Assembly: GCA_963770895.1 (NCBI GenBank)
Contig: CAVYRF010000001.1
Span: 1,504,001-1,568,000, forward strand
Source of the DNA: an uncultured Acidobacteriota bacterium
GTDB taxonomy: Bacteria; Acidobacteriota; Thermoanaerobaculia; Multivoradales; UBA5704
DNA: 64,000 nucleotides
Direction: 5' to 3'
The notes beneath the pieces are model-generated. The model searched no databases and was not told the origin of the DNA. It saw only the letters and a program-made list of their open reading frames with translations. This document shows, piece by piece, positions 2,980 through 49,807 of the stretch. Within the stretch, counting starts at the first letter, position 1. Each line of letters begins with the position of its first letter. The translations under genes and the position numbers were made by a program.

Positions 2980-4291
2980 TTGCAGACAGATGAATCAAAG
3001 GTAGATCCGTGTCTGCTCGCTGGCGCGAGCTGCGCCTCCCACGGCCGTTCAACCGGGATTGTGCCCGAGCCCTGGCCCGCGCCTGTGGAGGGTGCCGTCC
3101 TGCTGGGCAACATTGCGGCCACGTTCCAGCGTTTCGTGGCGCTGCCACGGTTCGCCGAGGTGGCTGCCGCACTATGGACAGTCCACGCTCACGCGATCGA
3201 GGCTGCCGGGGCTTCGCCGCTACTGGCCCTTACGTCGCCAGAGAAGCGGTGCGGCAAGACGACGACGCTGGCGCTGCTCGCCCGCCTGGTGCCGCGAGCT
3301 CTGCTCAGCTCGAACATCACGGCGGCGTCGCTCTTCCGGGTGGTGGAGAAGTACTCGCCGACGCTGCTGGTCGACGAGGCGGACACCTTCCTGCGGGAGA
3401 AGGAGGAGCTGCGCGGCATCCTCAATTGCGGCCACACGCGGGATGCCGCATACGTGGTGCGCACGGTCGGGGACGAGCACGAGCCGCGCCGGTTCTCGAC
3501 CTGGGCTCCCAAGGCCGTGGCGATGATCGGACGGCTCCCCGACACGCTGGCAGGCCGGAGCATCGTGGTGCCGATGCGCCGCCGCGCTCCGGGCGAGCAG
3601 GTGGAGCGGCTGCGGCTCGACCGGCCGGGTGACTTCGAGGCGCTGCGGCGGCGAGCAGCGCGCTGGGCCGCCGATCACCTGGCCGAGCTGCGCGCGGCGG
3701 ACCCCGAGGTGCCGGCGGAGCTCGGGGACCGGGCCGCCGACAACTGGCGGCCGCTGCTGGCGATCGCCGACCTGGCCGGCGGCGAGTGGCCGCAGCGGGC
3801 ACGGCGGGCGGCCGTCGCGCTGGCGAACTGCACCGCCGAAGAGCGGGACAGCGTGCGCGAGGAGCTGCTCGCCGACATCCGGGAGGCGTTCCGCGGGTGC
3901 AGCGGGGACCGGATTTTCACTGAGGAGCTGCTGGCCGAGCTGCGCACGCGGGAGGAGCGGCCCTGGGGGGAGTGGCGGCATGGCCAGGCCATGTTGGCCG
4001 TGCAGCTGGCCCGGCAGCTCAAGCCGTTCGGCGTCCGGCCCCGGCTGTATCGCGACGGCGCGAAGTGCGCGCGGGGATACTCGGCCGACGACTTCGCGGA
4101 TGCGTTCGCCCGCTACCTCCCCGCGGAGTCGCCGCCGGCGTTACAGGTCAATGCCGATCAGGGCTTGGCTGCATCTTCTGAGCGTTACGTCACGGCTGCC
4201 GCAACAGGTCGAGCGAGCGGCGCAAGCGCAAGCAGGCGTTGTAACGGATGTAACGAGCCCAGCCCCCGAGGCTCGCTGGGAGAAGGTGTAA
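2980..4291 (+). pseudogene. DUF3631-family replication protein of a phage satellite/integrative element, probable 3' frameshift
   Basis: 'PEPWPAPV', 'SPEKRCGKTT' (P-loop), 'TLLVDEAD', 'LGDRAADNWRPLLAIAD', 'DAFARYL'. The main frame runs on into nonsense, while another frame ends '..VTDVT..WEKV*' at 4291, just before the next RBS/ATG. Confidence 0.75.
4139..4255. repeat. Convergent CGTTACA/TGTAACG repeat array (putative origin)
   Basis: CGTTACA 4139-4145, CGTTAC 4183-4188, TGTAACG 4240-4246 and 4249-4255. Confidence 0.55.
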
Positions 4292-4295
4292 GCGG

Positions 4296-4760
4296 ATGGA
4301 TGCGGGAGAGCTGCTGGCGGAGCTGGCGGCGCGCGGGGTGGAGGTCCGCGCGGCTGGCGAGGATCTGGAGATCCGGCCGGCCGGGGCGGTGCCCGCAGGG
4401 TTGCTGGCGGAGCTGCGGGCGCACAAGCCGGAGGTGCTGCGACGGCTGGCGCGGCCGGTGGTGGGCGACGCTCTGGGGGGAGTGTCGGCGTGCAGCGCGG
4501 GGCTCCTCGCCGGCGATCCGTGCGCGATGCGGCTCGCGGACTTTCCTCGTGCGGGCCTGGTCGTTGAGGTGTGGAGCGACGTGCTCGGCGAGGCGGTGGT
4601 GTTCGCAAGCGACGACGCGTGCATCGACCCGGGCGAGCCGCGGCCGGTGTACCGGGCGTGCGAGCTGCTGGTGCTGCTCGGGCTCAGGGACGCTTGGGAG
4701 CTGCGGCGGATCCACGAGGTCAAGAGGACGTTTCGCGGCACAATCCGCCTCCACCCGGCC
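4296..4760 (+). pseudogene. Mobile-element protein with TubC-N-like N-terminal domain; natural stop lost
   Basis: 'MDAGELLAELAARGVEVRAAGEDLEIRPAGAVPAGLLAELRAHKPEVLRRL' resembles TubC_N. After 'IHEVKRTFRGTI' the ORF reads through into the opposite-strand NRPS. End coordinate is approximate. Confidence 0.5.
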
Positions 4761-4933: not shown

Positions 4934-7636
4934 TCAAGCCGCCGGCGTGGCGCCGGCCGCGGCTTCGGCGCCCGCCGGTGGTTGTTGGGCGCGCAGCGCA
5001 TCGACGCGTGCCGCGATGGCGGCCACCGTCGGCCGGGCGAAGAACTCGACCGCTGGGAAGCGAAGGTCGAACATCGCGCCGATGTTGGCGATCATCTGGG
5101 TCGCCATCAGCGAATGGCCGCCGAGGCGGAAGAAGTTGTCGTTGCGGCCCACTTCCTCGATTTTCAGGACCTCGGCGAACAGTCGGGCCACGGTGGCTTC
5201 GGTGGCGCTGAGCGGCGCCGCGGCCGCCGTGCCGGAGCCGCCGCCGCGCGCCGCCGCGGCTGGCGGGGCCGGCAGCGCGCCGCGGTCGATCTTGCCGTTC
5301 GGGTTGAGCGGCATTTCGTTCAGCCGCATGAACAGGTTGGGCACCATGTAGGGGGGCAGTTTCTGCTCCAGCAGTGCGCGCAGACGGTCTTCGAAGGTGT
5401 GCCGGTCTCCGGCTGCCGCCGTGGCTCCCTCCGGCGCGGTTGCCGCCGGGACGTAATAGGCGGTCAGCCGCATCTCGCCCGGCGCGGTCTCCGCCGCCAC
5501 CGCCACCGCCTCCTTCACGCCGGGGTCGGCGCGCAGAAGGGTTTCGATCTCGCCCAGTTCGATGCGCTGGCCGCGGATCTTCACCTGATGGTCGATGCGG
5601 CCGAGGAATTCCAGGTTGCCGTCCGGCAGGTAGCGAGCAAGGTCGCCGGTACGATACAGGCGTGCTCCCGGAGTGGCGGCAAAGGGGTCATCGACGAACT
5701 TTCGGGCAGTGAGGGCAGCGTCGTTGGCATAGCCCTGGCCGACGCCGTCGCCGGCCAGACAGATCTCGCCAGCGACGCCGATCGGCACCAGGTGCAGCCG
5801 CTCGTCCAGCACGTAGACCTTGCTGTTGTGAATCGGCCTGCCGATCGGCACCGAGGTACGGCTGTAGCGATCGAAGTCGATCAGCCGGTAGGCCGACGAC
5901 ACGTCGCTGCATTCGGCGGCGCCGTAGACGTTGACGATCTCGGCCGCGCGGCCTGGCGACGCCACCCAGCCCAGCAGGCGCGAGGCCGAGATCGCCTCGC
6001 CGCCCAGGAACAGACAGCGCAGCGATCGCAGGCTGGCGTGGCTGCCCGCCTCGGGCCCTTCGAGCAGCGGGTAGAAGGTGCTGGGGGCGCAGTTGAGCAG
6101 CGTGATCTCGGAGTTGCGCAGGGTGCGCAGCAGCAGCTCGGGGTCATACCCGTCCGGCACCAGGTGCAGCTCGCCCCCACGCGTCAGGGGCATGGCCATG
6201 CTGCGCTGGGTGAGGTCGAAGCTGATCGAGCTCATCAAGAGGTTCTTGTCGGCGGCCGAGATGGCGAAGTCGTGGCCGAACCACGACAGAAGGTTGGTCC
6301 AGCCGCGATGGTGGACCGCCGCGGCCTTGGGGCGGCCGGTCGAACCGGAGGTAAAGATGATGTAGCACAGATCTCCGGGCCCGCTGCGCCGCTCGGGTAG
6401 GTCGCCGGGACGCGCCGCCAGCGCGGCGGCGTCGCGGTCCACCAGGACCACGCGCGGTTTCCGGGCCGGCAGGCGATCGAGCAGCCGTTCGCTGGTGACC
6501 AGCGCCTTCAGCCTGACGCCCTCGAACATCACCGCCATGCGGTCGCTGGGATAGCTGGGATCGAAGGGCACGTAGGCGCCTCCCGCCTTGAGCACGGCCA
6601 GCACGGCCACCACCAGCGCGGGCGAGCGATTGAGGCAGATCCCGACCGGCGTGTTGGCGCCGGCGCCCAGGCTTTGCAGGTGATGGGCGAGCTGATTGGC
6701 GCGCCGGTCCAGCTCGCCGTAGCTGATCCGCAGCGGACCGTCCACCAGCGCAATGCGGTCGGGCGCCGCCGCCGCCTGCGCCGCGAACAGCTGATCCACA
6801 CAGACATCGCGCGGGTAGTTGTGCGCCGTGTCGTTCCAGTCGAAGAGCAGGCGCCGGCGCTCGCCTTCGTCGAGCATGCCGAGGTCGGCGAGAGCGGCGT
6901 TGGGGTCGCGCAGGCCGGCGTCGAGCAGCTGTGCCAGGTGGCACAACAAGCGTTCGACGGTGGCGGCCGCGAAGAGCAGCGGGCTGAAGGCGGCCCTGCC
7001 GCGCAGCCCATCGGGCACGCGCTCGAAGGTGATGGTCAGGTCGTTGCCGGTCGCCGGCAGCTCGCCGTGCAGGCCGCCGTGCACCAGCGCCACATCGAAC
7101 AGCGGGCAGCGGTCTGCCCCCGGTGGCAGGCCCAGGTCGCTCAGCAGCTGGGCGAACGGCACCTGCCGGTGGTCGTGCGCTTCGAGGAGAGCCTGGCGTA
7201 CGCGCAGGAGGGTCTGGCGGAAGCTCGCCTGCTCGTCGATCTCGCTGACCAGGACCAGGACGCTGTCCGCCGTGTCGTCCGCCGGGTTGCCGGTAGTGCG
7301 CACCGCCGCACAGCCGATGGCGATGGGCGACGCCTGGGTGTAGCGGTGCAGGCAGACGGCGAGCGTTGCCGCCAGCGCCACATGCTCGAGGAATGGCTCG
7401 CCGCCGGTCAGCTGGGAGAGACGGTCGAACAGCTGACCGCCCAGGACGATCTCCACGGAGGCGTTGTGGTCGAGCCGCCCGGCGGGGCGGCGATGGTCGG
7501 CGGGAGGACCCGCCGGACGCGGTCGAACCGCCAGCTTGTCGCGCCAGTAGCGGCGGCTTGCGGCGGCCGGGTCCTCGTCCGCGGCAACCGGCGGGGCGGC
7601 GCCGGCGGCCGCGGCGGTTTCGCTCACAGTGCTCAT
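4934..7636 (-). CDS. Stand-alone NRPS: half-C (interface-like) domain - A - T
   Basis: Starts at 'RYWRDKL' (C-terminal lobe only, no HHxxxDG). A motifs YIIFTSGSTGRPK, RTGDL and NGKID; T motif GGHSL. Hand-read code DLRNFGVDVK. RBS GGAGGG. Confidence 0.9.
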   Translation of the reverse strand: MSTVSETAAAAGAAPPVAADEDPAAASRRYWRDKLAVRPRPAGPPADHRRPAGRLDHNASVEIVLGGQLFDRLSQLTGGEPFLEHVALAATLAVCLHRYTQASPIAIGCAAVRTTGNPADDTADSVLVLVSEIDEQASFRQTLLRVRQALLEAHDHRQVPFAQLLSDLGLPPGADRCPLFDVALVHGGLHGELPATGNDLTITFERVPDGLRGRAAFSPLLFAAATVERLLCHLAQLLDAGLRDPNAALADLGMLDEGERRRLLFDWNDTAHNYPRDVCVDQLFAAQAAAAPDRIALVDGPLRISYGELDRRANQLAHHLQSLGAGANTPVGICLNRSPALVVAVLAVLKAGGAYVPFDPSYPSDRMAVMFEGVRLKALVTSERLLDRLPARKPRVVLVDRDAAALAARPGDLPERRSGPGDLCYIIFTSGSTGRPKAAAVHHRGWTNLLSWFGHDFAISAADKNLLMSSISFDLTQRSMAMPLTRGGELHLVPDGYDPELLLRTLRNSEITLLNCAPSTFYPLLEGPEAGSHASLRSLRCLFLGGEAISASRLLGWVASPGRAAEIVNVYGAAECSDVSSAYRLIDFDRYSRTSVPIGRPIHNSKVYVLDERLHLVPIGVAGEICLAGDGVGQGYANDAALTARKFVDDPFAATPGARLYRTGDLARYLPDGNLEFLGRIDHQVKIRGQRIELGEIETLLRADPGVKEAVAVAAETAPGEMRLTAYYVPAATAPEGATAAAGDRHTFEDRLRALLEQKLPPYMVPNLFMRLNEMPLNPNGKIDRGALPAPPAAAARGGGSGTAAAAPLSATEATVARLFAEVLKIEEVGRNDNFFRLGGHSLMATQMIANIGAMFDLRFPAVEFFARPTVAAIAARVDALRAQQPPAGAEAAAGATPAA

Positions 7637-7699
7637 TTCGCTCGCCCTCCAGGTCGCTCAGGTCGCTCAGGTCGCCGCGAAGCGCCGTGGTGTCCGCCC

Positions 7700-10216
7700 T
7701 CAAAAGTTGAACTGCAGGTTGGCAAGCGGCCGCCCGGTCGCGCTCTCGCGATCTGCCGTGGTGGCGATCGGCACGTCGCCCAGCAGGATGCCCGGCTCGC
7801 GCGCGGCCGCCGCCAGGACCGCCAGCAGCGCCTGGCCGAGCGCATCGCCGCCGTGGGGCGCCGCGTCGCCGCGCTCCAGGATGCGCAGCAGCAGGCCGCC
7901 GGCGCACTCCTGTACCCGCAGGATCAGCTCGACGTCCCGATAGGCCGGTACGGCGAAGCGCTCAGGCCCGTCCGCACCGCCCTCGCCATCCTGCAAAGTG
8001 AAGAGGCCCGGCGCCTCCGGCGGCGGCGGCGGGACCTCGACGTAACCGACCGCAAACACTGGACGCGCCTTCAGCGCGCCGGGGATCCGCAGGGTGGCGC
8101 CGAATAGGCTGGCGGCGAAGCGGCGGTGGGGCGCGGCGGCCTCCAGCCTGGCGCGCACCGCATGCGCCAGCTCGCGAAAGGCGGTGCGCTCGCTCGCCGC
8201 CAGGCGCACGGGGAACGGCTGCCCGCCGTCGCTCGCCACGATCACCGCCAGGTCGGTACGGCCGTCGAGCCGCAGCAGCGCGGCGGCGAGCGCGGCGAGC
8301 AGCAGGCTGCCCCGCTCGACACCGCAGCCGCGTGCCAGCGCATCCAGACGCGGCCGTGCCAGGTCGAGCGGCGAGCCCGAGCTCCAGGAGGCGTCCACTT
8401 CGTCCGGCCCGGCCGCCGCCATGGTGCCGCCGCGCCCTACCGAGAGCGGCGTGGCGAACTCGTCGCGCCAGTAGCGTTCGGCCTGGCGGAACGTCTCCGC
8501 GGACAGCGGCTGTCCCTGGTCGTGCGCCCCCGCCGCCCGGTCCCCCTCGGCCGCCGGGCGGTCGAACTGGCAGGAGCGGCGCAGCGCTTCGATGAGGAGC
8601 GGCGAGCCTTCGCCGCGCACCGGCTGCAGCACCTGTTCGCGCACCACCGCGTTCCAGCTGCCGAGGAAGGTATCGATCTGGTCGAACGACATGCCGCGGT
8701 TCTGCAGCAGGAACAGCGACACGAAGTTGAAGCCCGGATCGGGCACCCACTGTGGCCGATCGAAGCGGAAGAAGCAGCTTTCCACCAGATCGCAGGCGGT
8801 GCTCACGTCCATGGTGTCGTGCGACCAGGAGAAGTGATAGCCGCGGATGCCGTAGCGATCGCGCTCGTTCCAGATGGGCGTCACCGGGTCGCAGTACCAG
8901 ATCAGCGGGCGGTAGAAGTCGGGTCTGGTCTCCTCCAGGAAGTCGATGGTTTCCAGGGCGCTGGCGTAGGTTTCGCCGGGGAAGCCGAAGAAGAGGGACG
9001 CGAAGACCTTGATCCCCGCCGCCTTGAAAAGCGGAATGACCGAGAGGTAGTGCCGCTTGCGCGGCGTTTTGTGCATATTGACCAGCATCTGGTCGTTGGC
9101 CGATTCGAGGCCGAGGAACACCCCCTGGCAGCCGGCCTGCGCCATCAGCTGGACGAGCTCCTCGTCGCAGAAGTCGGCGCGGAAGAAGCAGTGCCAGCGA
9201 AAGCCGTAGCGCTGGCGGATCATCATGCGCATCATCTCTTTGAAGGTCTGCAGCGGCACGTTCGCCGTGTCGTCCACGAAGAACAGGCCGGTCACCGTGC
9301 CGACGTCGCGGATGGCGTTGAGCTCGCGCTCGATGTATTCGAGCTTCGAGACGTCGTACTTTTCGGTGCGCAGCGGAAACGAACAGAACGAGCAGGTGAA
9401 CGGACATCCTTTGGTGATGCGCACATTGACGTAGCTGCCCACCATGTCGGGCGGGAACAGCGAGTAGTCGATGAGGTTTTCGTACAGCGAGTTGAACTCG
9501 CGCTCGCTGGTGGTCAGCAGGAAGCGATCGCCCTGCCGATAGGCGATATTGGGGATGGCGGCGAAGTTGCGGTCTCCCTTGAGCGCCAGCAGGAGGCGCG
9601 CCAGCGCCTGCTCGCCCTCGCGGCTGCGCACGTAGAAGTCGGCGTCGATGTACCTGAACACCGCCTGCAGGTCGCTCTCCTCCATCGATTCGGAGCGCTT
9701 GGCGATGTAAGGTCCGCCCACCACGATGTGGGTGTCGGGGCTGTGCTCGCGCAAGAAGTTGACGACTTCCAGGATCGGTGCGTCGTAGTTGTAGATGGTG
9801 GTGGTGACCACCGCGGTCAGGTAGCGCCTGGTGCGCAGCTTTTCGCGCAGCTCGTCCTTTTGCAGTTGGAACAGGTTGATGTAGTCGAAGCTGAAGCCGC
9901 GCCGCGCCAGATAGGTCCCCAGGTACATCACCACCATCCACAGCACCTCGGTGTTGTGGAACTTGCGGCGAATGTCGAGCCCCGGCCGGCCCTCGAAGTG
10001 GAAGTGATCCAGGATGTCCATCGCCCGCCAGGGCCGGCCCTGGTACTGGATGTAGTTGAGGCTGAGGTCGCGATAGTCGGGATGGCCGGCGCCCATGGCG
10101 CGCATCATGTCGACTTCCTGCGCGAACTCGCTATCGTTGTAGCCGATGATGAGGCAGTCGGTGAGCATGGCTGGGGCTCCCACGGCGGATGGGACCTGCT
10201 GGCCCGAGGTTCCCAT
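7700..10216 (-). CDS. PhpK-like (B12-dependent class) radical SAM enzyme fused to a C-terminal half condensation domain
   Basis: 'DCLIIGYND' N-terminus, 'VVGGPYI', CxxxCxxC motif 'CPFTCSFC', 'FVDDTAN', 'GLESAN'. The C-terminal ~270 aa start 'AERYWRDEF' and resemble a C-lobe. Alternative start at 10168. Confidence 0.85.
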   Translation of the reverse strand: MGTSGQQVPSAVGAPAMLTDCLIIGYNDSEFAQEVDMMRAMGAGHPDYRDLSLNYIQYQGRPWRAMDILDHFHFEGRPGLDIRRKFHNTEVLWMVVMYLGTYLARRGFSFDYINLFQLQKDELREKLRTRRYLTAVVTTTIYNYDAPILEVVNFLREHSPDTHIVVGGPYIAKRSESMEESDLQAVFRYIDADFYVRSREGEQALARLLLALKGDRNFAAIPNIAYRQGDRFLLTTSEREFNSLYENLIDYSLFPPDMVGSYVNVRITKGCPFTCSFCSFPLRTEKYDVSKLEYIERELNAIRDVGTVTGLFFVDDTANVPLQTFKEMMRMMIRQRYGFRWHCFFRADFCDEELVQLMAQAGCQGVFLGLESANDQMLVNMHKTPRKRHYLSVIPLFKAAGIKVFASLFFGFPGETYASALETIDFLEETRPDFYRPLIWYCDPVTPIWNERDRYGIRGYHFSWSHDTMDVSTACDLVESCFFRFDRPQWVPDPGFNFVSLFLLQNRGMSFDQIDTFLGSWNAVVREQVLQPVRGEGSPLLIEALRRSCQFDRPAAEGDRAAGAHDQGQPLSAETFRQAERYWRDEFATPLSVGRGGTMAAAGPDEVDASWSSGSPLDLARPRLDALARGCGVERGSLLLAALAAALLRLDGRTDLAVIVASDGGQPFPVRLAASERTAFRELAHAVRARLEAAAPHRRFAASLFGATLRIPGALKARPVFAVGYVEVPPPPPEAPGLFTLQDGEGGADGPERFAVPAYRDVELILRVQECAGGLLLRILERGDAAPHGGDALGQALLAVLAAAAREPGILLGDVPIATTADRESATGRPLANLQFNF

Positions 10217-10250
10217 GTATAAGTGCAACCCGCAGTGCGCCGGCCGCCGG

Positions 10251-11177
10251 TCAGACCTTGCGCGCCACGATCTGGAACGAGTCCGTCGGATTCACGCATT
10301 CGCCCGGCGTCGGCGTGCGATGGAATGTCGTTTTGCCGAAACCGTCGAACAGCCGCGCGATCTCCTCCTCGCCGCTCAGCATGTGTCGGGTGTGGACGCT
10401 GGCGAACTGGCGGAACAGCTCGAGCAGGCTGTCGCGGCCGCCGTCCGGGTGCTGCGGGAAGTGGTCGCCGTGCCCGGCCAGCAGCCGCTCGGCGCGCTCG
10501 GCATAGCCGCTGCGCAGCTCGGGGGTGGTGGCGCCGCCGATCATCGCGGTGGTGACCAGGGTGCCGCCCGGCTTGAGCAGCTCCCGCCAGCGCTTGACGA
10601 TCGTCGGCTTGTCCGCCGCCTTGATGACGGTCAGGAACTCGTCGGTGACGATGAGGTCGTAGGCGCCCAGCGGCAGGTCATCGGTGAGCAGGTTGGCGCG
10701 GGCACACTCGACCTGGAAGCCATGCCGGTCGGCATACCATTGGCAGGCGCGCAGCGGGGTGCGACAGATATCGTAGATCTCGATCCGTGGGGCGGCGTCC
10801 ACCTCGACCATCGCGGCGTACAGGGTGGCCAGCATGCCGTAGTCCGCCGCCGCCGAGATCAGCACCCGGCTGTGCGGGGCGCGGCGCAGCACCGCCGTGA
10901 GCGCCTCCTGGTAGAACTCGTACCAGGGTGGCGTCGCCACCATGTTGAGCAGGCGCAGGTACTGCCACGTGCCGTGATACCAGCTGCAGCTGATGTCCGG
11001 CAGGGCCTTGGCTTCCTGGTGTGTCTTGGCCCACTCTTCCATCCCGCCGGTCTCCTTGGCGCCGCAGTGCTGGGCTGCCCACGCCTCCATCAGCGGGGCC
11101 GATTCGATCAAGAGCTCGCGGTTGAACGGATCCAGCTCGTACAGGCGGATGGCAGGAGCGGTGGCTGTCGATGGCAT
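10251..11177 (-). CDS. Class I SAM-dependent methyltransferase-fold enzyme (degenerate motif I)
   Basis: GGAGG RBS before the ATG at 11177. 'RVLISAAAD', 'IYDIC', 'YDLIVTD', 'LLKPGGTLV'; N-terminal 'CSWYHGTWQYLRLL'. Confidence 0.75.
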   Translation of the reverse strand: MPSTATAPAIRLYELDPFNRELLIESAPLMEAWAAQHCGAKETGGMEEWAKTHQEAKALPDISCSWYHGTWQYLRLLNMVATPPWYEFYQEALTAVLRRAPHSRVLISAAADYGMLATLYAAMVEVDAAPRIEIYDICRTPLRACQWYADRHGFQVECARANLLTDDLPLGAYDLIVTDEFLTVIKAADKPTIVKRWRELLKPGGTLVTTAMIGGATTPELRSGYAERAERLLAGHGDHFPQHPDGGRDSLLELFRQFASVHTRHMLSGEEEIARLFDGFGKTTFHRTPTPGECVNPTDSFQIVARKV

Positions 11178-11294
11178 TCGTCTGTCCTCCAAAGGGTTTC
11201 CATAGGGCAGCGGGCTATGGCGCCGGGGCTACGCTCTGCTCACGCCCCTCGCGCGATGCGAAACGCCAGCGTCGCGACAAAATACACCAGATAA

Positions 11295-11324
11295 TTGAAA
11301 ATTGGAATCTTCCAAAATTTTCAA
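11295..11324. promoter_or_regulatory. Inverted repeat in AT-rich divergent promoter region (putative operator)
   Basis: TTGAAAATT-N12-AATTTTCAA with inner GGAA-TC-TTCC, lying between the divergent genes starting at 11177 and 11438. Confidence 0.55.
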
Positions 11325-11437
11325 CCGGTACTACAATTAAACGCGCCGAAAGGGACTGCCTCGGTCCGCGTTCCACGCTCTGCGTCGCGCGCTCGAGGAA
11401 CCGCCCGACGGACCGCCCACGACCCCGAGGAGACCGC

Positions 11438-12199
11438 ATGGCGACAGCGCTCAACCCCGACGCCTTCGTCCGCAAGCAGGACCGGCCCCGAGCCCGCCTG
11501 CGCCTGTTCTGTTTCACCTTCGCGGCATCGAGCGCACAGCTGTTCCACGGCTGGAACGACCACGTTCCCGAATGGATCGAGGTGAGCGGCTGCGAGCTGC
11601 CGGGGCACGGCGGCCGCCTGGCGGAGACACCGGTCTCCAACCAGCACGAAGCGGCGATCGAGATCGCCGATATGTTGGAGCCGGCTATCGATCGCCCCTA
11701 CGCTCTCTTCGGCCACTGCCTGGGCGCCGCCCAGGCATACGAGGCGACCCGCCTGCTGCGCCAGCGCGGCAAAGCGCAGCCGGTGCGCCTGTTCAGCTCC
11801 GGCGCGCGGGGACCCCATCTGGGTATCCCCATCGCCGACGTCGAAAGCATGGACGACGACGTATTCATCGAGCACATGCATCAGGCGTATGCGGCGCCGA
11901 TCGCCTTTTTGCGCCACCCCGAGATGCGGCCGCTCTTCCTGCCCATGGTGCGTGCCGACGCCCGCATGACACAGAACTACCGCTACGTGTCCGGCCCGCC
12001 GGTCGACTACCCGGTGACCGCGGTGGCGGGCGAGACCGACCCCGACGTGCAGATGGAGCACCTGGTCGCTTGGCGCGACCACACCACGGCGCCGGTGACG
12101 GCGCGCATCTACCCCGGGAACCATTTCTTCTTCATCGACAGCGCGCCGCAGCTGCTCGCCGATTTCGCTCGCGAGCTCGCGGCGAGCCTGCCCGGCTGA
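11438..12199 (+). CDS. Type II thioesterase-family protein with Cys nucleophile (GHCLG)
   Basis: GAGGAG RBS. 'RLFCF', 'ELPGHGGRL', 'ALFGHCLG' (11711-11725), 'PGNHFF'. Confidence 0.9.
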   Translation: MATALNPDAFVRKQDRPRARLRLFCFTFAASSAQLFHGWNDHVPEWIEVSGCELPGHGGRLAETPVSNQHEAAIEIADMLEPAIDRPYALFGHCLGAAQAYEATRLLRQRGKAQPVRLFSSGARGPHLGIPIADVESMDDDVFIEHMHQAYAAPIAFLRHPEMRPLFLPMVRADARMTQNYRYVSGPPVDYPVTAVAGETDPDVQMEHLVAWRDHTTAPVTARIYPGNHFFFIDSAPQLLADFARELAASLPG

Positions 12200-12214
12200 C
12201 CGGAAACCTTGCCG

Positions 12215-12682
12215 ATGACGACCGGCCAGAGCCTGCAAGATCTCTACGCCCCCGCCGATCACTGCTTTGGCTGCGGGCCGGCCAACGAGCACGGCCTGCG
12301 CATCAAGAGCTATGTGGACGGCGACGAAGTGGTGGCCGAATGGACCCCCGATCGCCGTCATGAAGCGTTCGACGGCGTGGTCAACGGTGGCGTCATCGGT
12401 GCCCTGTTCGACTGCCACAGCAACTGGACGGCCGCCTGGCATCTGATGCTGCGCCACGGCGGCAGCGAGCCGCCCTGCACGGTCACCGCCGACTACCAGG
12501 TGCATCTGGTGTGGCCCACCTCGTCGCGCGGCCCGCTGCGGTTGCGCGCCTGGGTGGTGGAGTCGCAAGACGAGAGCGCCGTGGTCGAGGCCAGCCTGGA
12601 GGCGGCGGGCCGCACCACCGCCTACTGCCGTGGCACCTTTGTCGCCGTCCGGGAGGGCCATCCCGCCTTTCACCGGCGGTAG
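12215..12682 (+). CDS. PaaI-family hotdog-fold thioesterase
   Basis: 'HCFGCGPANEHGL', 'GVVNGGVIGALFDCH', 'VTADYQV'. Confidence 0.8.
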   Translation: MTTGQSLQDLYAPADHCFGCGPANEHGLRIKSYVDGDEVVAEWTPDRRHEAFDGVVNGGVIGALFDCHSNWTAAWHLMLRHGGSEPPCTVTADYQVHLVWPTSSRGPLRLRAWVVESQDESAVVEASLEAAGRTTAYCRGTFVAVREGHPAFHRR

Positions 12683-14427: not shown

Positions 14428-17400
14428 GTGACCGGGCGGCTCAAGGACCTGATCATTCTGCGCGGACGCAACTACTACCCGCAGGATATCGAGCGCACGG
14501 CCGCGCGGGTCCACCCGGCCCTGCGGCCGGACGGCGGAGCGGCCTTTTCGATCGAGCGCGAGGGCACAGCGCGCCTGGTGGTGGCGCAGGAGGTCGAGCA
14601 CGGCCGTGCGGATGTGCCGGATATGGCAGCTCTCGCCGAGGAGGTCCGGCGGATGGTTGCCGACGAGCTCGAGGTCGCGGTCGACGAGGTCGTGCTCCTG
14701 CGTAGCGGGACCCTCCCCAAGACCACCAGCGGCAAGGTCCGGCGCCAGGCTTGCCGGGAGGAGTACCTCGCGGGGAGGCTTTCCGTCGCCGGGCGCAGCG
14801 GGCTCGCCGCCGGCCGGGATCTGCCGGAAGACACCCCCACCAGCTTTGGCGATCTCGGGACGCTCGATCCGGCTGCCATCCGGGCGCTCGTCGCCGCGGA
14901 GGCCGCGCGCGTCCTCGGTCTCGACCCCGGAAGGCTGATGCCGGACCGTCCCCTCGCCGCGCTCGGACTGGACTCGCTGGCCGCTGTCGAGCTCAAGGCG
15001 GGACTGGAAGAGAAATCCGGTGTCTCCTTGTCGCTCACCCGGCTGCTCTCCGGGGCGAGCCTGGCGTCCGTCGCGGCGGAGGTGCTGGCGGGATCGGCGG
15101 TGCCGCGCCAGGTGCCGGAGTTGGAGATCGGGGCTCCTCTCGGCGACCATCCCCTCTCGGCAGGGCAGGAGGCTCTCTGGTTCTCCGACCGGCTGGCTCC
15201 GGAGGCCGCCGCTTACAATGTGGCGACGGCCGTCCACGTCGAGGGGGGGCTCGACCCGGAAGCCCTGGGGCGCTCCCTCCAGGCTCTGGCCGACCGCCAT
15301 CCGGCCCTGCGGACCACTTTCTTCTCTCAGCTCGGCGAGCCGCGCCAGATCGTTCACGAGCGCCTCGCCGTGGATTTCCGCGTCGAGCCATCGGGGTCGA
15401 AGGGGGCGGAGATCCCGCTCGTGGCCGAGGCCTACCGCCCATTCGATCTCGAAAACGAGTCTCTTCTACGGGTCCGGGTCTGGCCTCTGGAGGGTGGCGG
15501 CTGGCTTTTGCTCCTCGTCGTACACCATCTGGTGACCGATTTCTGGTCGCTCGGCCTCTTCGTCCGGGAGCTTGCAGCGCTCTATGGCGAGGCGACCGGC
15601 CAGGGACCGGCGCGGCTCGCACCCCTGCCGCTCGGCTACACCGACTACGTCCGCTGGCAGGGCAATCTTCTTGCCGGGGAGCAAGGTGAGCGGCTCTGGG
15701 AGCACTGGCGCCAACAGCTCTCGGGAGATCTTCCCGTGCTTGAGCTGGTGACGGACCGTCCCCGTCCCGCCGTCCAGACATATATCGGCCTCTCCCGCGG
15801 CCTGCGCCTCGCGCCCGAGCTTGCGGACCGGCTGCGGGCGCTCAGTCTGGCTTCGGGAACGACGCTCTTCGTCACTCTTCTGGCCGGGTTCCAGGCTCTC
15901 CTTGGCCGTTGCACCGGACAGGATGAGGTCGTGATCGGCTCCCCCACGGTGGGCCGGGGCGCCGCGCCCTTCCTGGGGGTGATGGGCTACTTCGTCAACC
16001 CGGTGGCGCTCCGCCTCTCCAGCGCCGGCGATCCTGCCTGGCGCGATCTCCTTTCGTTCGCCAAGGCGGTTTGTCTCGCCGCATTCGAGCACCGGGATCT
16101 CCCCTTTGCCACCTTGGCCGAGCGGCTCCATCCCGAGCGAGACCCCAGCCGTTCCCCGGTTTTCCAGACACTCTTCGCGCTCCAGAAGGCGCAGCGGCCG
16201 GAGGAGAGGGGCCTGGCGGAACTCGCCGCCGGAATAGAGAGGGCTCGGGCCACTCTGTCGGATCTCGAGCTCGTTGCCGTCCCCCTCGAGGAGTGCCGCT
16301 CTCCCTTCGACCTCACGTTGACGGCCGCCGATGCCGAGGCGGGCCTCCCGATCGTCCTGCAAGTCAACCGCGACCTCTTCGATCCCGCTACGGCGGAACG
16401 CCTTCTGCGTGCTCTCGAAAATCTGCTGTACGCCCTGGCTGAGGATCTCGATGCCCGAGTCTCCGCGGCCGAGATGCTCGGGGACGCGGAGCGCCGGCAA
16501 TGCGAGGCCTGGAGCCGCACCACGGTCGAGCTGCCGCGCGGCCTCTGCCTGCCGGACCTCTTCGCCGCGCAGGCGGAGCGCACTCCGGGGCGAGAGGCCC
16601 TCGTCGCCGGCAGTGAGCGTCTCACCTACCGAGAGCTGAGCCGTCGGGTGGAGATCCTGGCGCGGAGGCTTCGCGTCCTCGGCGTCGGACCGGAGAGCCG
16701 GGTCGGGGTTTCCGTCGGCCGATCCGCCGATCTCGTCGTCGCGCTTCTCGCGGTCTTGCGGGCAGGCGGCGCCTACGTGCCGCTCGACCCCGTTCAGCCC
16801 GCCGAGCGGCTCGCCTGGATGCTGCAGGACTCCGGGGCGGAGGTGTTGCTCGTCGAGGAGCGCCTCGCTCCAGGCCTGCTGGCAGCCGGGGTGCCCGCAC
16901 GCTGCCGAATCGTCTTGCTCGACCGCGGCGCGCACCGCAGCAGAGCCCAGCGGGGGATCCAGGGACGGCAAGATCCCATACTGCCCGGAAATCTCGCCTA
17001 CCTGATCTATACCTCGGGATCGACGGGACGGCCGAAGGGAGTGGCGATCGAGCACCGGAGCGCGGTGACGCTCGTACAGTGGGCGCGGCAGGTCTTCACG
17101 GACGCCGAGCTGTCCGGGGTCCTCGCCGCCACCTCGATCGGCTTCGACCTCTCGGTCTTCGAGCTCTTCGTACCTCTTTGCTGGGGTGGCCGGGTGATCC
17201 TGGCCGAGAATGCCCTGGCCCTCCCCGGACTGCCCGCGGCGGGCGAGGTGCGGCTGGTCAACACCGTGCCTTCGGTCCTCGCCGAGCTGGTCCGTGGGGA
17301 GGACGGGCTGGAGCTGCCGGGCTCGGTCACCACGATCAACCTGGCCGGAGAGCCCCTGCCGCGCTCCCTGGTGCGGGCCATCCACGAGAAACACCCGGCG

Positions 17401-20400
17401 GCGCGGGTGCTCAACCTCTACGGCCCTTCCGAGGACACCACCTACTCGACGTTCGCCGTGGTCTCGCCGGACGGAGAGCTGCCGCCGGCCATCGGCCGGC
17501 CGATCGCCAACACCCAGGCCCATGTGCTGGACCGCGGCAGACGCCAGGTGCCGGCCGGCGTGCCAGGCGAGCTCCATCTCGGCGGAGAGGGTCTGGCGCG
17601 CGGCTACCACGGGCGGCCGGATCTCACGGCGGAGCGGTTCGTGCCGGACCCGTTCGCGACGGGAGCGCGGCTCTACAGGACCGGGGACCTGGCCCGCTGG
17701 CGGCCGGACAGGGAGCTCGAGTTCCTCGGCCGCATCGATCATCAGGTGAAGATCCGCGGCGTCCGCATCGAGCCGGCGGAAGTGGAATCGGCGCTGCTCT
17801 CGCGGCCGGGAGTGCGCGAGGCGGTGGTCCTGCCGCAGGGGGAGGGTAGCGACCGGCGCCTCATCGCCTATGTCGTCGCCGAGACCGGTGCGGAGCTGGA
17901 CGAGGGCGCCCTCCGCGAGTCGCTCCTCGGGCTCCTGCCGCGGGCCATGGTGCCCGCGGCGATCGTGCCAGTTCCCGGGCTGCCGCTCACTCCGAACGGC
18001 AAGCTGGACCGCCGCGTCCTGGCGCGGCTCGCCCCGGAGCCATCGGCAGGTGGAGGAGGGGAGCCCGCGGCGCCGCGCTCGCCGGTGGAGGAGCTGCTCG
18101 CCGGCATCTGGACGGAGGTCCTCGGGGTCGAGCGGGTAGGGGCGGGAGACGACTTCTTCGCGCTCGGCGGGCATTCCCTTCTCGCTCCGCGCGTCCAGGC
18201 ACGGGTGCGCGAACGGCTCGGCGCCGAGCTGCCGCTCTCCGTGTTCTTTCAGCATCGCACGCTGGCGGAGCAGGCGCGGCGGCTCGCCGTCCGCAAGGTG
18301 GACGACCGCCCTCCACTTCGTCCGTCGCCGCGGGAGCGGACCGTTTTTCCTCTCTCCTTCGCTCAGGAACGCGTCTGGTTCCTCGAGCGGCTCGAGCCGG
18401 GCACAGCGGTCTATCACATGGCCGGCAGCACCCGCCTGACCGGCCCACTCGATCTCGCGGCGTTACGCCGCGCGCTTTGCGAGCTCGAGCGGCGGCACGA
18501 CGCCCTCCGCGCCCGGTTCCGGGAAGTAGACGAGATCCCGGTCCAGGAGATCGCCCCTGGGGGGCTGGACGGTCCGGAGTTGCCGGTCGTGTGCCTCGGG
18601 GGGTTGGAACCGGCGGCGCAGGAAGCCGAGGCGGAGCGTCTCACCAGAGACGAAGCCCAGCGCCCCTTCGATCTGGAGAACGGGCCGCCGTGGCGGCTCC
18701 TTCTCCTGCGCAAAGATTCCTGCCTTCACGAGCTCCTCATCACTCTGCACCACATCGCCGCCGATGAGGAATCGCTGGTGATCCTGGCGCGGGAGCTGGC
18801 CGCGCTCTATGCCGCCTTCCACAAAGGAAGGCCTCCCAGGTTGCCGGAGTTGCCGCTGCGCTCCGTTGACTTTGCCCTGTGGCAGAGGGAAGGGCTGGTT
18901 GGCGAGGTGCTGGAGAAGCGGCTCGCCTGGTGGCGGGAACGCCTGGCCGATCTCCCCATCATCGAGGTGGCGGCCGACCGTCCTCGTCCTGAGGCGCGGA
19001 GCTCCCGTGGGGATGTGGTCACCACCGTTTTGTCGCCGGCCCTCGCCGATGCCCTCGCTGCTCTGGGCCGCCGGGAGGGCGTCACGTTGTTCATGGTGCT
19101 CCTCGCCGGCTTCCAGGTCATCCTGGAGCGGATCTCTGGCGAGCCTGAGGTGCCGGTCGGCTGTCCGGTCTCCAACCGCGACCGCGAGCCGATCCTCCCG
19201 GTGATCGGTTTCCTGGTCAACACCCTGGTCCTCCGAGCGAGCAGCACAGCGGCCCCAAGCTTCGGCGGATTCCTGCGGCGGGTGCGGGAAGTCACCGTCG
19301 AGACCTTCGAGCATGGTGATGTCCCGTTCGAGCTGCTGGTCCAAGCACTCCAGCCGGAACGGGCTCTCGGCCGCAACCCACTCTTCGAGGTGGCTTTCGC
19401 GCTCCAGCGGCCACCCCATGGCTGGCAGGTCGACGATCTCGCCTTCGCGCCTCGGATCGTGCCGACCAGGACGGCCAAGTTCGCCCTCACCCTGTTCGCC
19501 ATCGCAGAGGAGGGGAAGCTCTCGCTTCTCCTCGAGTACGCGACGGACCTCTTCGACCGGCCGACCCCGGCGCGCCTGCTGGGTTACCTCGAAACGCTGC
19601 TCGCCGTGGCGGCCGCGGAGCCTGCGCGCCCTCTCGCCCTGCTCCCCTTGTTCGCTCCGGCGGAGCAGCAGGAGCTGATCCATCATCCGGAAGCACGGCT
19701 CTTTCGCAAGGTGGCGAGGGCGCGCGTCCCGGAGAGTCGCGGGGAGAATGGGCCGCGCGTCCTGGCCGCTCCGCGGACTCCCACCGAGGAGCGGCTGGTC
19801 GAGATCTGGGCCGGTGTGCTGGAACGCAGGCAGGTGTCGATCCACGACGACTTCTTCAGCCTCGGTGGCCATTCGCTCCTGGCCTCTCGGGTCGTGGCAC
19901 GGATTCGCAAATCCCTGGGCGTCGACCTGCCGCTCTCGATCCTCTTCACCTGTCCGACCATCGCGCGACTGGCCGGCGAGGTCGACCGCGCGCGCCGCGC
20001 TGCCGATGCGGGCGTGACGGAGGTAGAGCCGGTGGCGGCACCCCTCACCTTCCGCTGGGAGGACGGCTCCGCCCCACCGCTTTCCTTTGCTCAGGAGCAG
20101 CTCTGGTTCATTGACCAGCTGGAGCCGGGGAGCCCGGTTTACAACCTCTCCACCGCCGTATGCCTCGATGGGGCTCTCGACCGGAATGCCCTGCGCAGGG
20201 CTCTGGTCCAGGTCGTCGAGCGCCACTCGGTCCTCCGCACGACCTTGCGCGCCTTCGAGGGGCGACCGGTCCAGGTCGTGGCGCCGCATTTCCTCCCCGT
20301 CCTGCACGAGATCGATCTCCTGGATCTCGCTCCCGGAGTGCGGCAGGACGAGGCGGCGCGCCATGTGGCGGCCGGGGCGCTCGCCCCCTTCGACCTTGCC

Positions 20401-22107: not shown

Positions 22108-22122
22108 AGCAGGAGCTGATCC

Positions 22123-25100
22123 ATGGAGCAGGACATGAATGAGCCGAATGTCGAACAGATCGAACGGACGGACGTGGAGGGGATCGCCATCGTCGGCATC
22201 GCCGCGCGATTCCCGGGCGCACGCAACGCCGCCGAGCTGTGGCGCAACCTGCGTGACGGGATCGCATCGATCTCGTTCTTCAGCGAGGAGGAGCTGGCTG
22301 CGGCCGGAGTGGAGCCCGCGCTGCTGGCCGATCCACGCTACGTGCGGGCCAAGGGCTCCCTGGAGGACGCGGACCTCTTCGACGCAGCCCTCTTCGGCCT
22401 CACGCCGCGCGAGGCCGAGACCATGGATCCTCAGCACCGGATCTTCCTGGAGTGCGCCTGGGAGGCGCTGGAGGATGCGGCTTGCGATCCGGAGCGCTTC
22501 GGGGGCCGCATCGGCGTCTGGGCCGGCTCGGGCTTCAGCTCCTACCTGCTCTCGAACCTCCTGCCCAACCAAGAGAGGATGGAGGGCTTCGGCGCCCTCC
22601 AGGTGGCGCTCCTGAACGACCGCGACTTCCTCGCCACGAGGGCCTCGTACCAGCTGAATCTCAGGGGACCCAGCGTGTCGGTCCAGACCGCCTGCTCGAC
22701 CTCCCTGGTGGCAACTCACATGGCCTGCCAGGGCCTGATCGGGGGTGAGTGCGACATGGCGCTCGCCGGGGGCGTCTCGATCAGCGCGCCGCTGCGCACG
22801 GGCTACCTGTACCAGGAGGGGAGCGTGCTCTCGCCGGACGGCTGCTGCCGCGCCTTCGACGCCTCCGCGGCCGGCACTGTGGAGGGGAACGGCTGCGGAA
22901 TCATCGTCCTGAAGCGGCTTGACGACGCCCTGGCCGACGGCGACCGCATCTACGCGGTGATCCGCGGCTCGGCGGTGAACAACGACGGATCGGCCAAGAT
23001 CGGCTTCACCGCGCCCAGCGTGGAGGGGCAGGCCTCGGCCATTTCCGAGGCCCTGATCACGGCCGGGGTCGATCCCGCGACGATCGGCTACGTCGAGGCC
23101 CATGGCAGCGGCACGCCGCTCGGCGATCCCATTGAGATTGCGGCGCTCACCAAGGCTTTCCGCGCAGCGGGAGCCGAGGGCATGGGCTTCTGCGCCATCG
23201 GATCGATCAAGACCAACTTAGGCCATTGCAACACGGCGGCGGGCGTGGCCGGGCTCATCAAGGCCACCCTGGCGCTGGCGCACGAGACTCTGCCACCCAG
23301 CCTTCACTACGAGAGCCCCAACCCGCAGATCGACTTCGCCGGCAGCCCCTTCTATATCTGCACAGAGGCGCGGCCGTGGACCACCACTGGAGGGCCGAGG
23401 CGGGCCGGCGCGAGCGCGTTCGGCCTGGGCGGGACGAACGCCCATGCCGTGCTGGAGGAAGCGCCCGAGCAGGAGCCGGGCGATCTCCCCTCGCGGCCGG
23501 CACAGCTCCTGGTCCTTTCGGCCCGCACCCCGGCGGCGCTCGACGCGGCGGCGGCCCGGCTGGCGGACCACCTGGAGGCGAATCCGGACGTCGACATCGC
23601 CGACGTCGCGTGGACCCTTCAAGTCGGGCGCAAGGAGCTCGAGCACCGCCGGATCGCCGTGGCCCGCGACCGCGAGTCCGCCAGCTCCGCGCTCAAGGAC
23701 CGTGCCCCCGCCGCCGTCACCGGCAAGCAGGAGGGCGCATGGTCGAGGCCGGTGGTGTTCCTCTTCCCAGGGCTCGGCGACCAGTACGTGGACATGGCGC
23801 GGGAGCTTTACGAGACCGAGGCGCTCTTCCGCGGGCAGGTCGACCTTTGCGCCTCCAAGCTCCAGTCCTGGCTGGGCGCCGACCTGCGCGAGGTGCTCTT
23901 TTCGCCCGGGGAGTGGTCGCTGCCCGCCAAGGCAGCCCCGGACCTGCGCACCATGCTCCGCCGCAACGCGGAGACCTCGCGCCTCGACGAAACCCTGTTC
24001 GCGCAGCCGGCCTGCTTCGTGGTCGAGTACGCCCTGGGCCGTCTGTTGATGGACTGGGGGATCGTGCCGCGGGCCCTGATCGGCTACAGCCTCGGCGAGT
24101 ACGTGGCGGCGTGCCTGTCGGGAGCGCTCTCCCTGGACGATGCCCTGGAGCTGGTGGCGCGGCGGGCGAAGTTGATCCAGGCCCTCCCCGGGGGAGCCAT
24201 GCTTGCGGTGCCCTTGCCCGAGGAGGAGATCCGGCTCCTGCTGGGGGAGGGCCTGTCGCTCTCCGCTACCAACGGCCCGCATTTCTGTGTGGTGGGAGGG
24301 ACCGGCGAGGCGGTGGATACGCTGGACCGGCAACTGGCCGAGCGCGGTGTGAGCTGCCTCCGGCTGCGGACCACGCACGCGTTCCACTCCGCGCTGATGG
24401 AGCCGGCCGTGGCTCCCTTCACGAAGATTGCGTGCAAGGTGCGCATGCAGGCGCCGGCCATCCCCTTTGTCTCCAACGTCACCGGCACCTGGATCACCGC
24501 GGACGACCTCGCCGGCCCCGCCTACTGGGCGCGGCACCTGCGCCATCCCGTACGCTTCGCGGAGGGCATCGGCGAGCTGCTCCAGGAGCCCGAGCACGTT
24601 TTCCTGGAGGTCGGCCCGGGCGCGACCCTGGGTACGCTGGTCAAGCAGCACCCGGCTGCCGTGGCCAACCGGGTCACGGTGCCGACTCTGCGCGCAGGGG
24701 GCTCCGACCTGGAGACCCTGCTGGAGGCCGTGGGCCGGCTCTGGATCGCGGGGACCCACGTCGACTGGGCCCGCTTTCACGGCGGCGAGCGCCGCCTCAA
24801 GGCGCCGCTGCCGACCTATCCCTTCGAGCGCCAGCGCTACTGGATCGATCCGTCGAAGGACTCGGCGAAACCCGCGGCGGCCGCCGGTCCCGCGGCCGAC
24901 CTCGCGGACTGGTTCTGGGTCCCGGCCTGGAAGCAGGTGCCTCGCATGGCCGGCCTCCGGGAGACCCTCCGCTGGCTGGTCTTTCTGGATGAAGCAGGGC
25001 TGGGAGACAGAATCGCGGCGCGGCTGCGTAAGGACGGCCACGAGGTCGTTACCGCGAGGCCGGGCACCGCCTTCGAGGAGATCGGGGAGGGTGCGTTCAC

Positions 25101-49601: not shown

Positions 49602-49807
49602 CGGTTCGCCTCGAGGTGAACGTCAAGAGAGCCTGCGTCCGGGCGGCGCGTTCCTCGCCAGGTCTGCGAGGTGACGCAGGCGGGCAGCTGAAGCCTTGCT
49701 ACGGCTCCAGGTGGGTGACATGGAGCACGGTCCGAGCGAAACCAACGGCGCCGCGAGGCCGCCTGCAACGGTGGGTGGTCCTTGGCTAACATAGGGCTCC
49801 TCCGCCC

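Follow-up and report, generated by a model that had tools for sequence, protein, structure and literature searches.

A radical SAM enzyme fused to half a condensation domain, and its predicted docking to an adenylation-thiolation protein in an uncultured Acidobacteriota bacterium

The glycopeptide X domain (PDB 4tx3, 6m7l), a full two-lobe domain that binds a folded P450, is a catalytically dead relative of the condensation (C) domain by which a nonribosomal peptide synthetase (NRPS) recruits trans-acting tailoring enzymes, the Oxy P450s, to a carrier-bound substrate. Interface (I) domains are likewise C-domain relatives without the catalytic histidines; they are full-length C-like domains inside siderophore NRPSs and are tied to a trans-acting iron- and 2-oxoglutarate-dependent hydroxylase, and work by Reitz et al. 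in 2019 reportedly paired them with siderophore beta-hydroxylases. Here we describe a variation on this theme of a dead C-like domain that recruits a tailoring enzyme, found in a stretch of 64,000 nucleotides of an uncultured Acidobacteriota bacterium (assembly GCA_963770895.1, contig CAVYRF010000001.1, positions 1,504,001 to 1,568,000), which in its full length we call the window. The system consists of a B12-binding radical S-adenosylmethionine (SAM) protein of the PhpK family, P0001, which carries the C-terminal lobe of a C domain as a tail, and of its neighbour P0002, in which a second such lobe precedes an adenylation (A) and a thiolation (T) domain. Unlike in the X domain, the candidate receptor is here a half domain N-terminal to A-T, with a C-terminal peptide as its modelled ligand, and the tailoring enzyme brings a half domain of its own; I domains, too, are not N-terminal half domains.

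Cassettes of an A-T protein, a tailoring enzyme and a thioesterase are also known to supply non-proteinogenic amino acids (BpsD/OxyD/Bhp, NovH/NovI). The locus resembles them in its free-standing A-T protein, its putative tailoring enzyme for a tethered amino acid and its nearby thioesterase, whereas these cassettes, to our knowledge, employ P450s or non-haem iron enzymes and contain neither half-C domains nor a docking peptide. CysS and TokK (PDB 9n1b, 7kdy), class B radical SAM methylases and structural neighbours of the P0001 core, illustrate that this class can take pantetheine-linked substrates; they stand alone, with C-terminal domains of their own, and we know of no C-lobe or FxF partner system for them. 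Of the B12 radical SAM enzymes associated with NRPSs, the only one with biochemistry that we found is DscE, the B12-dependent radical SAM C-methyltransferase of the discodermin NRPS cluster in 'Entotheonella', which according to the accessible text of its description was assayed only on released peptide (PMC12858407). Like P0001, it is a cobalamin-dependent radical SAM methylase in an NRPS cluster, termed there 'an unusual enzyme combination', but that text mentions no condensation-like domain, docking peptide or A-T partner (PMC12858407). As far as the accessible part of a review of NRPS docking goes, the COM, PAX and beta-hairpin/short linear motif (SLiM) classes all act at T|C, T|heterocyclization (Cy) or epimerization (E)|C junctions between assembly-line subunits, and no class described there uses a half C domain before an A domain (PMC9113145). 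The pair proposed below shares with them a short, disordered C-terminal motif that binds an N-terminal element of the next protein, the receptor of COM being also part of a C domain; it differs in having a C-lobe receptor before an A domain, an FxF motif at the extreme C-terminus, and a tailoring enzyme as the docked protein (PMC9113145). In the literature that we searched, most subscription journals and supplements aside, there was no description of a radical SAM::C-lobe fusion or of an FxF/half-C pair.

The genes in question all lie on the minus strand of the window, which has a GC content of about 70%. P0001 and P0002 comprise the following features:

7700-10228 (-): radical SAM::C-lobe fusion gene (P0001), 842 aa from a TTG at 10228, with the stop codon TGA at 7700-7702; the database version, P0003, starts at M21 (ATG 10168) and has 822 aa
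8645-10159 (-): PhpK-family B12-binding radical SAM core, aa 24-528, recognised by TIGR04479, Pfam Radical_SAM and B12-binding, and Foldseek
9383-9406 (-): CX3CX2C cluster motif of the core (CPFTCSFC, aa 275-282 of P0001)
7736-8512 (-): C-lobe fused to the radical SAM core (the 'tail'), with AERYWRDEF at 8462-8473, no N-lobe and no HHxxxDG
7703-7726 (-): predicted C-terminal docking peptide, the last 8 residues (...LANLQFNF, FxF motif), from the complex model, disorder in the monomer model and conservation
4934-7636 (-): C-lobe-A-T gene (P0002, 900 aa), ATG at 7636 with GGAGG upstream
6845-7561 (-): N-terminal C-lobe of P0002, aa 26-264, with RRYWRDKL at 7538-7549, Pfam profile positions 193-456; predicted FxF receptor
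5291-6787 (-): adenylation domain of P0002 (core and C-terminal subdomain), aa 284-782, by Pfam
5003-5194 (-): thiolation (carrier) domain of P0002, aa 815-878, with the GGHS phosphopantetheine site at 5111-5122

P0001 extends for about 300 residues beyond its radical SAM core, and an earlier note on this DNA had claimed that this extension and the start of the next protein each hold only the C-terminal lobe of a C domain, without the HHxxxDG motif. Profile and structure comparisons bear this out for both proteins. The tail alone matches the Pfam Condensation profile weakly (E 0.0098, 15.1 bits, below the cut-off of 30.6; profile positions 185-274), and direct BLASTP aligns it with the P0002 lobe over 53 aa at E 0.007, which is too weak on its own and therefore made a comparison of profiles necessary. 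PF00668 was matched at E<=0.01 in 23 of 25 scanned homologues, 15 of the 25 scoring above the cut-off (maximum 64.7 bits), and all of these matches fall within profile positions 185-456. A local hidden Markov model (HMM) built from 75 tails detects the C-lobes of all 8 full C domains of the window (independent E 1e-10 to 1e-15) and matches the P0002 lobe at 3.4e-14, and hhalign aligns the tail family colinearly with the family of partner lobes over 291 columns (98.9% probability, E 3.7e-17). The tail-family profile also picks out solved C domains by their C-terminal halves (2jgp, 5.8e-21; further LgrA and SrfA-C, residues 181-447), and in Foldseek the AlphaFold2 model of the tail (mean predicted local distance difference test, pLDDT, 85.6; predicted template modelling score, pTM, 0.86) is most similar to NRPS C and X domains (6p4u, E 5.6e-12). 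The X domain 4tx3_B ranks third (E 3.7e-11), but the fold of the tail is no nearer to it than to ordinary C domains; moreover, each protein has one lobe, placed N-terminal to A or C-terminal to the radical SAM core, and Pfam scans of the window contain no P450. Profiles for I domains are available in antiSMASH 8, according to the accessible part of its description (PMC12230676), and no TauD-type hydroxylase adjoins the cassette in the window.

In P0002, the Condensation match is confined to profile positions 193-456 (aa 26-264, 62.2 bits), and AMP-binding, AMP-binding_C and PP-binding come after it. Only 63 nt separate the radical SAM stop codon from the P0002 start, with GGAGG just before the ATG, leaving no space for an N-lobe ahead of the P0002 lobe. 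A regular-expression search for HHxxxD[GA] found no occurrence in P0001 or P0002 and 5 motifs in the ordinary C domains of the window; the full C domain at 26850-28229 (+), which occupies its own frame between a polyketide synthase (PKS; 22120-26784) and the big NRPS (start near 28256) and belongs either to a stand-alone C protein or to a frameshifted gene, gave no canonical HHxxxDG in this search. Genome-wide, 5 of 256 C-lobe matches lack an upstream N-lobe match, two of the five being the lobes described here; the many 'N-lobe without C-lobe' matches of the same scan probably reflect a narrow C-lobe HMM that misses E/Cy-type lobes, and we draw nothing from them. This six-frame scan gave about 300 C-domain N-lobe, 256 C-lobe and 318 A-domain matches in 8.16 Mb, marking the genome as exceptionally NRPS-rich.

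The tail is less conserved than the radical SAM core (consensus frequency about 0.3-0.45 vs 0.65-0.75) and keeps positions like those of motifs C5-C7, namely an invariant P653 together with R655, H681, P703 and F705. In the full-length model (pLDDT 87.6, pTM 0.89), the radical SAM core and the lobe are modelled confidently as a single unit, while residues 804-822, including the terminal FNF, stay below pLDDT 50, a pattern that fits a rigid core-plus-lobe body with a flexible end. Across the 75 aligned homologues F820 and F822 (F840 and F842 of P0001) do not vary, and an FxF lies at most 6 residues from the C-terminus in 105 of 110 fused homologues. The motif also occurs without the tail: unfused radical SAM proteins encoded ahead of a lobe-A gene end in ...EAFNF (L021) and ...TFEFL (L024), and the unfused Pelosinus protein P0089 ends in ...KFNF. 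None of 12 unfused radical SAM proteins without a following lobe-A gene, among them the second one of the window (41779-43431), has an FxF end. Judged by eye against P0002 aa 262-275, the terminal Q-F-N-F comes after the C-lobe at about the position of the C-A linker motif (L)xEWN(D)T of ordinary modules, and the docking peptide may be a relic of that linker.

When the tail (286 aa, 75-row alignment) was modelled together with the partner lobe (275 aa), the complex scored 0.62 (runs 0.62, 0.60 and 0.64), compared to 0.01 for the best of 3 controls. Of 80 solved complexes, 58 reach the score mark used, as do 2 of 110 mismatched pairs; these counts are rough since our own alignments were used. 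The runs share at least 40% of their contacts, with a partner pLDDT of at least 71. Contacts with an expected error below 8 Å came exclusively from tail residues 279-280 and 282-286, within L279-F286 (LANLQFNF), and meet partner-lobe residues 75-78, 80, 82-83, 86, 112, 140, 143-144, 147, 151, 154 and 245; of the 92-144 residue contacts in total, 24 are confident, and those of lobe on lobe are of low confidence. The model thus supports, but does not show, binding of the radical SAM tail to the partner lobe, and in the proposed complex it is the terminal peptide, not the lobe, that makes the confident contacts. On this evidence, the lobe of the A-T protein would be the receptor and the FxF peptide the plug. 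The receptor side differs from ordinary C-lobes in matching places: position 83 is L in 21 of 23 partner lobes vs T in 52 of 62 ordinary ones, position 144 is L in 21 of 23 vs variable, and position 82 is F/L vs A/V. Altogether, 6 of the 25 positions that best discriminate partner from ordinary lobes are modelled contacts (mean Jensen-Shannon divergence 0.47 vs 0.33, one-sided Mann-Whitney p = 0.045). In being a disordered, conserved C-terminal motif that co-occurs with its predicted receptor, the peptide has the marks of a SLiM-type docking pair; the receptor region is a C-lobe rather than a separate small N-terminal domain, and hence not a beta-hairpin docking domain.

A search for homologues of the fusion scored 1195 proteins at E<=0.001 among 8000 candidates. 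Among the best 120, 110 are fused (>=770 aa), with about 98% of the query aligned at 39-80% identity, and the lobes do not behave as poorly conserved, decaying relics. The tail is retained in Thermoanaerobaculia, Pyrinomonadaceae, 'Ca. Angelobacter', an Entotheonellaceae bacterium (P0097, 805 aa, PF00668 at 55 bits) and Ktedonobacteraceae. Searched with the single tail sequence by HMMER, 1.84 billion representatives returned 30 matches, mostly fragments, and a metagenome scan of 80 loci added one further fused locus, L020, most of the others being distant radical SAM proteins (L020-L033 were examined). In a survey of 401 Acidobacteriota genomes, a PhpK-like radical SAM protein occurred in 6 and the fusion only in the genome of the window; no half-C was found beside the unfused proteins in 5 Acidobacteriota contexts (L108-L112).

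Gene order ties the fusion to a lobe-A partner. Scanning with local HMMs and Pfam covered 11 fused loci, one of which ends inside the tail, leaving 10; a lobe-A(-T) gene without N-lobe lies directly downstream in 8 of these (the window, L001-L004, L007, L008 and L020), and a partner-type lobe also stands beside radical SAM proteins without a lobe of their own (L021, L023, L024). Two proteins unite the parts covalently: P0221 (1897 aa) is a radical SAM-lobe-A-(T)-full C chain, and P0220 (3009 aa) contains radical SAM-lobe-A, with a radical SAM-like insert, followed by a C domain. Such Rosetta-stone forms argue that the radical SAM enzyme and the lobe-A-T protein work together. Both proteins have a single lobe, of the partner type, with the radical SAM domain in place of the N-lobe of a C domain, which speaks against a requirement for two lobes. 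The insert of P0220 is a B12/radical SAM-like segment at aa 1154-1755, within the A domain, and the lobe-A protein of L023 (7700-9742) has a similar extra segment after its lobe; by their sequences, both look like in-line radical SAM domains inside NRPS modules.

A phylogeny of C domains, proposed in the earlier note, separates the two kinds of half-domain. The FastTree tree of 160 C-lobes, built without I-domain or X-domain sequences, gathers the 75 tails in a single clade (support 100) and places 23 of 25 partner lobes in a second one (support 96), including those beside the unfused L021, L023 and L024 enzymes; the 62 ordinary C-lobes make up the remainder (support 88). On its long branch, the tail clade attaches at the node that parts partner from ordinary lobes, without a clear sister relationship to the partner lobes. 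In the tree of radical SAM cores, all lobe-associated enzymes fall into one clade of 125 (support 97), within which P0220, P0221, L023 and L024 group together (support 99) as the sister of the tail-fused clade, which has 121 members (support 100). L021/L022 and P0089 branch from inside the latter and, read from the tree, would represent secondary losses of the lobe; L021 and P0089 have retained FNF. In this sequence tree, association with a partner lobe is apparently older than the fusion of the tail.

With 640.4 bits, the radical SAM core exceeds the cut-off (600) of TIGR04479, 'PhpK family radical SAM P-methyltransferase' (P0001 aa 24-528, model positions 2-503/504). Its Radical_SAM domain spans aa 270-431 in Pfam, and Pfam B12-binding is matched at aa 100-184 with 24.2 bits, below the cut-off of 32.1 and inside the region covered by TIGR04479. 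With PhpK and BcpD it shares the HMM family, the B12-binding and radical SAM core and the CX3CX2C motif; it differs by its lack of a phosphonate context, by the extra C-lobe of about 250 aa, by the FxF end and by the link to an A-T module. Its Foldseek neighbours are TsrM, CysS, MgmA, AprD4 and TokK, with E-values of 2.8e-17 and 3.0e-15 for the CysS and TokK structures 9n1b and 7kdy, which according to their entry titles were solved with pantetheinylated substrates. These substrates, the free-standing A-T protein with its intact GGHS site and the nearby thioesterases lead us to infer that an amino acid undergoes C-methylation on its carrier before it is released or handed on. A second PhpK-family B12 radical SAM protein of the window (41779-43431, +; 550 aa, TIGR04479 at 641.9 bits), encoded directly after the thioesterase domain of a 4.5k-aa NRPS, has neither a C-lobe nor an FxF end and groups with 8 others that lack the motif in a separate radical SAM clade (support 98).

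Genes beside P0001 and P0002 fit into the same picture of a cassette:

10251-11192 (-): class I SAM methyltransferase-like gene, first of the operon (Pfam and locus comparison)
11171-12199 (+): type II thioesterase (alpha/beta hydrolase), divergent from the operon; true start probably near 11435
12209-12682 (+): hotdog-fold (4HBT) thioesterase, with a homologue in L003, L005 and L006

A class I methyltransferase-like gene precedes the fused radical SAM gene in L001, L002, L003, L005, L006, L007 and L020 as well, and a homologue of the type II thioesterase stands beside the cassette in the window and in L003, L005, L006, L007 and L020. NRPS1 (14428-22107, +), with the domain order Asub-T-C-A-T-C-T-C-Asub-T (Asub, small C-terminal A subdomain), has 3 carrier domains without an adenylation core, 2 of which retain only the small C-terminal A subdomain, and these carriers would therefore need loading in trans, for which the free-standing lobe-A-T protein is a possible candidate.

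The surroundings of the cluster may include remnants of mobile elements: a DUF3631 protein is encoded at 2980-4299 (+), its frame continuing into apparently out-of-frame sequence, Toprim/DUF7146 and exonuclease-like open reading frames (ORFs) flank the cluster (the flank region includes 49790-51033, +), and the GC content falls to 0.61-0.62 at 1-2000 and at 48-50 kb of the window. A 1200-aa ORF at 51155-54754 (-) has a coding-like GC content at third codon positions and no Pfam match at E<=0.001.

Taken together, we favour the view that the operon of class I methyltransferase, radical SAM::C-lobe and C-lobe-A-T genes, with its divergent thioesterase, is a cassette for tailoring a building block of a large NRPS/PKS cluster, in which a docking peptide and a half-C receptor tether the methylase to the A-T loading module, so that it alters the carrier-bound amino acid; as a whole, we rate this explanation a little better than even. 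The A domain would load an α-amino acid onto its own T domain, and the PhpK-family enzyme, working as a C-methylase and not as a P-methylase, would be anchored there through its C-terminal peptide (acidic/polar-x-F-N-F), a disordered segment that would bind in a remodelled hydrophobic groove of the P0002 half-C. The enzyme would then modify the phosphopantetheine-tethered substrate, after which a thioesterase would release the product, or the product would be handed to the assembly line. The half-C of the A-T protein would serve both as the usual structural platform of the A domain and as the docking receptor. That of the radical SAM protein is predicted to pack rigidly on the core, where the N-lobe sits in a C-A-T module, and this fixed packing suggests that it may help to present the carrier domain or the pantetheine arm to the radical SAM active site. 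Tentatively, and with more doubt than confidence, one can go further and suppose that the radical SAM domain replaced the donor (N-terminal) lobe of a C domain, giving a 'radical condensation-like module' of radical SAM domain and C-lobe (with A and T), in which the C-lobe would supply the acceptor carrier site and a pantetheine channel to the B12/[4Fe-4S] site instead of HHxxxDG. Its covalent form (radical SAM-lobe-A-T), its split form with the FxF peptide and its split form with a duplicated lobe and FxF would be interchangeable, and with FxF/half-C the C|A junction would have a docking code not described for NRPSs before.

A number of observations weigh against tethering of the methylase as we propose it. 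All trees were made with FastTree only, and that of the radical SAM cores was rooted on the distant L030/L031, a root that is our own assumption. The fused loci L009 and L005 keep FNF without an adjacent lobe-A-T gene, although L005 (10001-11558), a second fused copy in the same metagenome-assembled genome as L001, has its core split over 2 frames (HMM positions 1-73 and 73-517), still ends in LQFNF and is probably a decaying duplicate. The unfused radical SAM protein of L023, which precedes a lobe-A gene, ends in ...DFDLD and not in a strict FxF, and the enrichment of contact residues is modest at p = 0.045, in sequences that are interrelated. As far as its accessible description goes, DscE methylates free discodermin D and B after assembly, converting Val to tert-Leu in vitro (PMC12858407), which argues against an obligatory action on the carrier and leaves a post-assembly role open. 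Finally, 6 loci have, upstream of the radical SAM gene, an NRPS protein that ends in a full C domain and an acidic FxF-like motif:

L021: ...EEFDFCA
L022: ...EQFKF
L023: ...AEFDID
L024: ...AEFDF
L026: ...EQFEF
L008: ...EQFDFGLP

A full C domain is an unusual end for an NRPS subunit. Given these 6 upstream proteins with a similar end, FxF may serve to order subunits in general and not be specific to the radical SAM protein, with two proteins perhaps in competition for the one receptor.

How well do other explanations account for these data? The earlier note had proposed that the two lobes dock the radical SAM enzyme, perhaps by packing into a pseudo-C domain, a lobe:lobe heterodimer that would place it on the T-bound substrate. 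Both are lobes of the chloramphenicol acetyltransferase fold without their usual partner lobe, they co-occur in 8 of 10 fused loci, and the complex model draws some contact between them. The confident contacts of that model, however, all come from the terminal peptide, the partner lobe also accompanies the lobe-less enzymes of L021, L023 and L024, and a single lobe suffices in P0221 and P0220; moreover, the partner-lobe association appears to predate the fusion of the tail, and L021 and P0089 lost the lobe while keeping FNF. We consider lobe pairing quite unlikely, whereas the wider idea of docking is partly supported, in that synteny, shared phylogenetic history, the two single-chain fusions and the complex model, which passes its controls, strongly link the radical SAM enzyme to the lobe-A-T protein. 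The lobes may instead be structural leftovers without a docking role, the one on the A-T side kept only as the platform needed by A domains that come from elongation modules and the one on the radical SAM side being a passenger of recombination, with the enzyme acting on a free amino acid or a released peptide. In C-A-T structures the C-lobe:A interface is indeed the usual rigid platform, the core is better conserved than the tail, L009 and L005 have no adjacent partner, and the activity of DscE on free discodermin D in vitro, as given in the accessible text, would suit such an enzyme (PMC12858407). Nevertheless, this explanation seems unlikely: of the best 120 homologues, 110 keep the tail, down to 39% identity and across Acidobacteriota, an Entotheonellaceae bacterium and Ktedonobacteraceae, the tail is predicted to fold confidently in a fixed position on the core, and the surface of the partner-lobe clade is remodelled exactly at the modelled peptide site. 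It would also be left unexplained why the terminal FxF is nearly invariant and why it correlates with a lobe-A gene downstream.

Alternatively, FxF/half-C could be a general ordering code at a split C|A junction, by which an upstream NRPS ending in a C domain joins the lobe-A-T protein, with the radical SAM enzyme borrowing it or competing for it and the stand-alone cassette of the window retaining a vestige. The FxF-like ends in the 6 loci listed above speak for this possibility, but neither the window nor the Thermoanaerobaculia loci have an NRPS protein ending in C-FxF beside the cassette, the C-termini of the other NRPS/PKS proteins of the window lack the motif, and only one ORF genome-wide ends in lobe and FNF; the motif is nonetheless nearly invariant in fused radical SAM proteins. 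We therefore regard an ordering code as very unlikely, while noting that it is compatible with tethering of the methylase and does not exclude it. The literal annotation, a phosphinate P-methyltransferase like PhpK/BcpD in a phosphinothricin-like peptide pathway, can point to the TIGR04479 score above the cut-off and to phosphinothricin tripeptide, which is an NRPS product. TIGR04479 is, however, a 'subfamily' model whose cut-off both radical SAM proteins of the NRPS cluster exceed, and no phosphonate genes were seen among the ORFs of the window. In addition, P-methylation is made unlikely by the lack of a phosphoenolpyruvate (PEP) mutase above the cut-off in the genome, which is 94.95% complete; the best TIGR02320 match, about 780 kb from the window, reaches 42.5 bits vs 319.55. 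On these scores P-methylation was rejected, and we hold the annotation, taken literally, to be barely credible.

The fusion and the docking pair may explain how B12 radical SAM methylases join peptide assembly lines, and a family of more than 100 proteins in which an NRPS-derived domain is built in, the docking peptide is defined and the A-T partner is a dedicated one offers a direct experimental handle on this question. If the docking pair is real, it would be a compact natural tool for recruiting tailoring enzymes, and should the wider replacement model hold as well, the FxF/half-C code could be reused to attach tailoring enzymes or split modules by design. Engineered XUC exchange units cut NRPS modules at the junction of the C-domain lobes and between C and A. 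A real docking pair would mean that nature cuts modules at these same two places, and it would flag uncultivated Acidobacteriota as sources of radically C-methylated (e.g. tert-butyl-type) non-ribosomal peptides.

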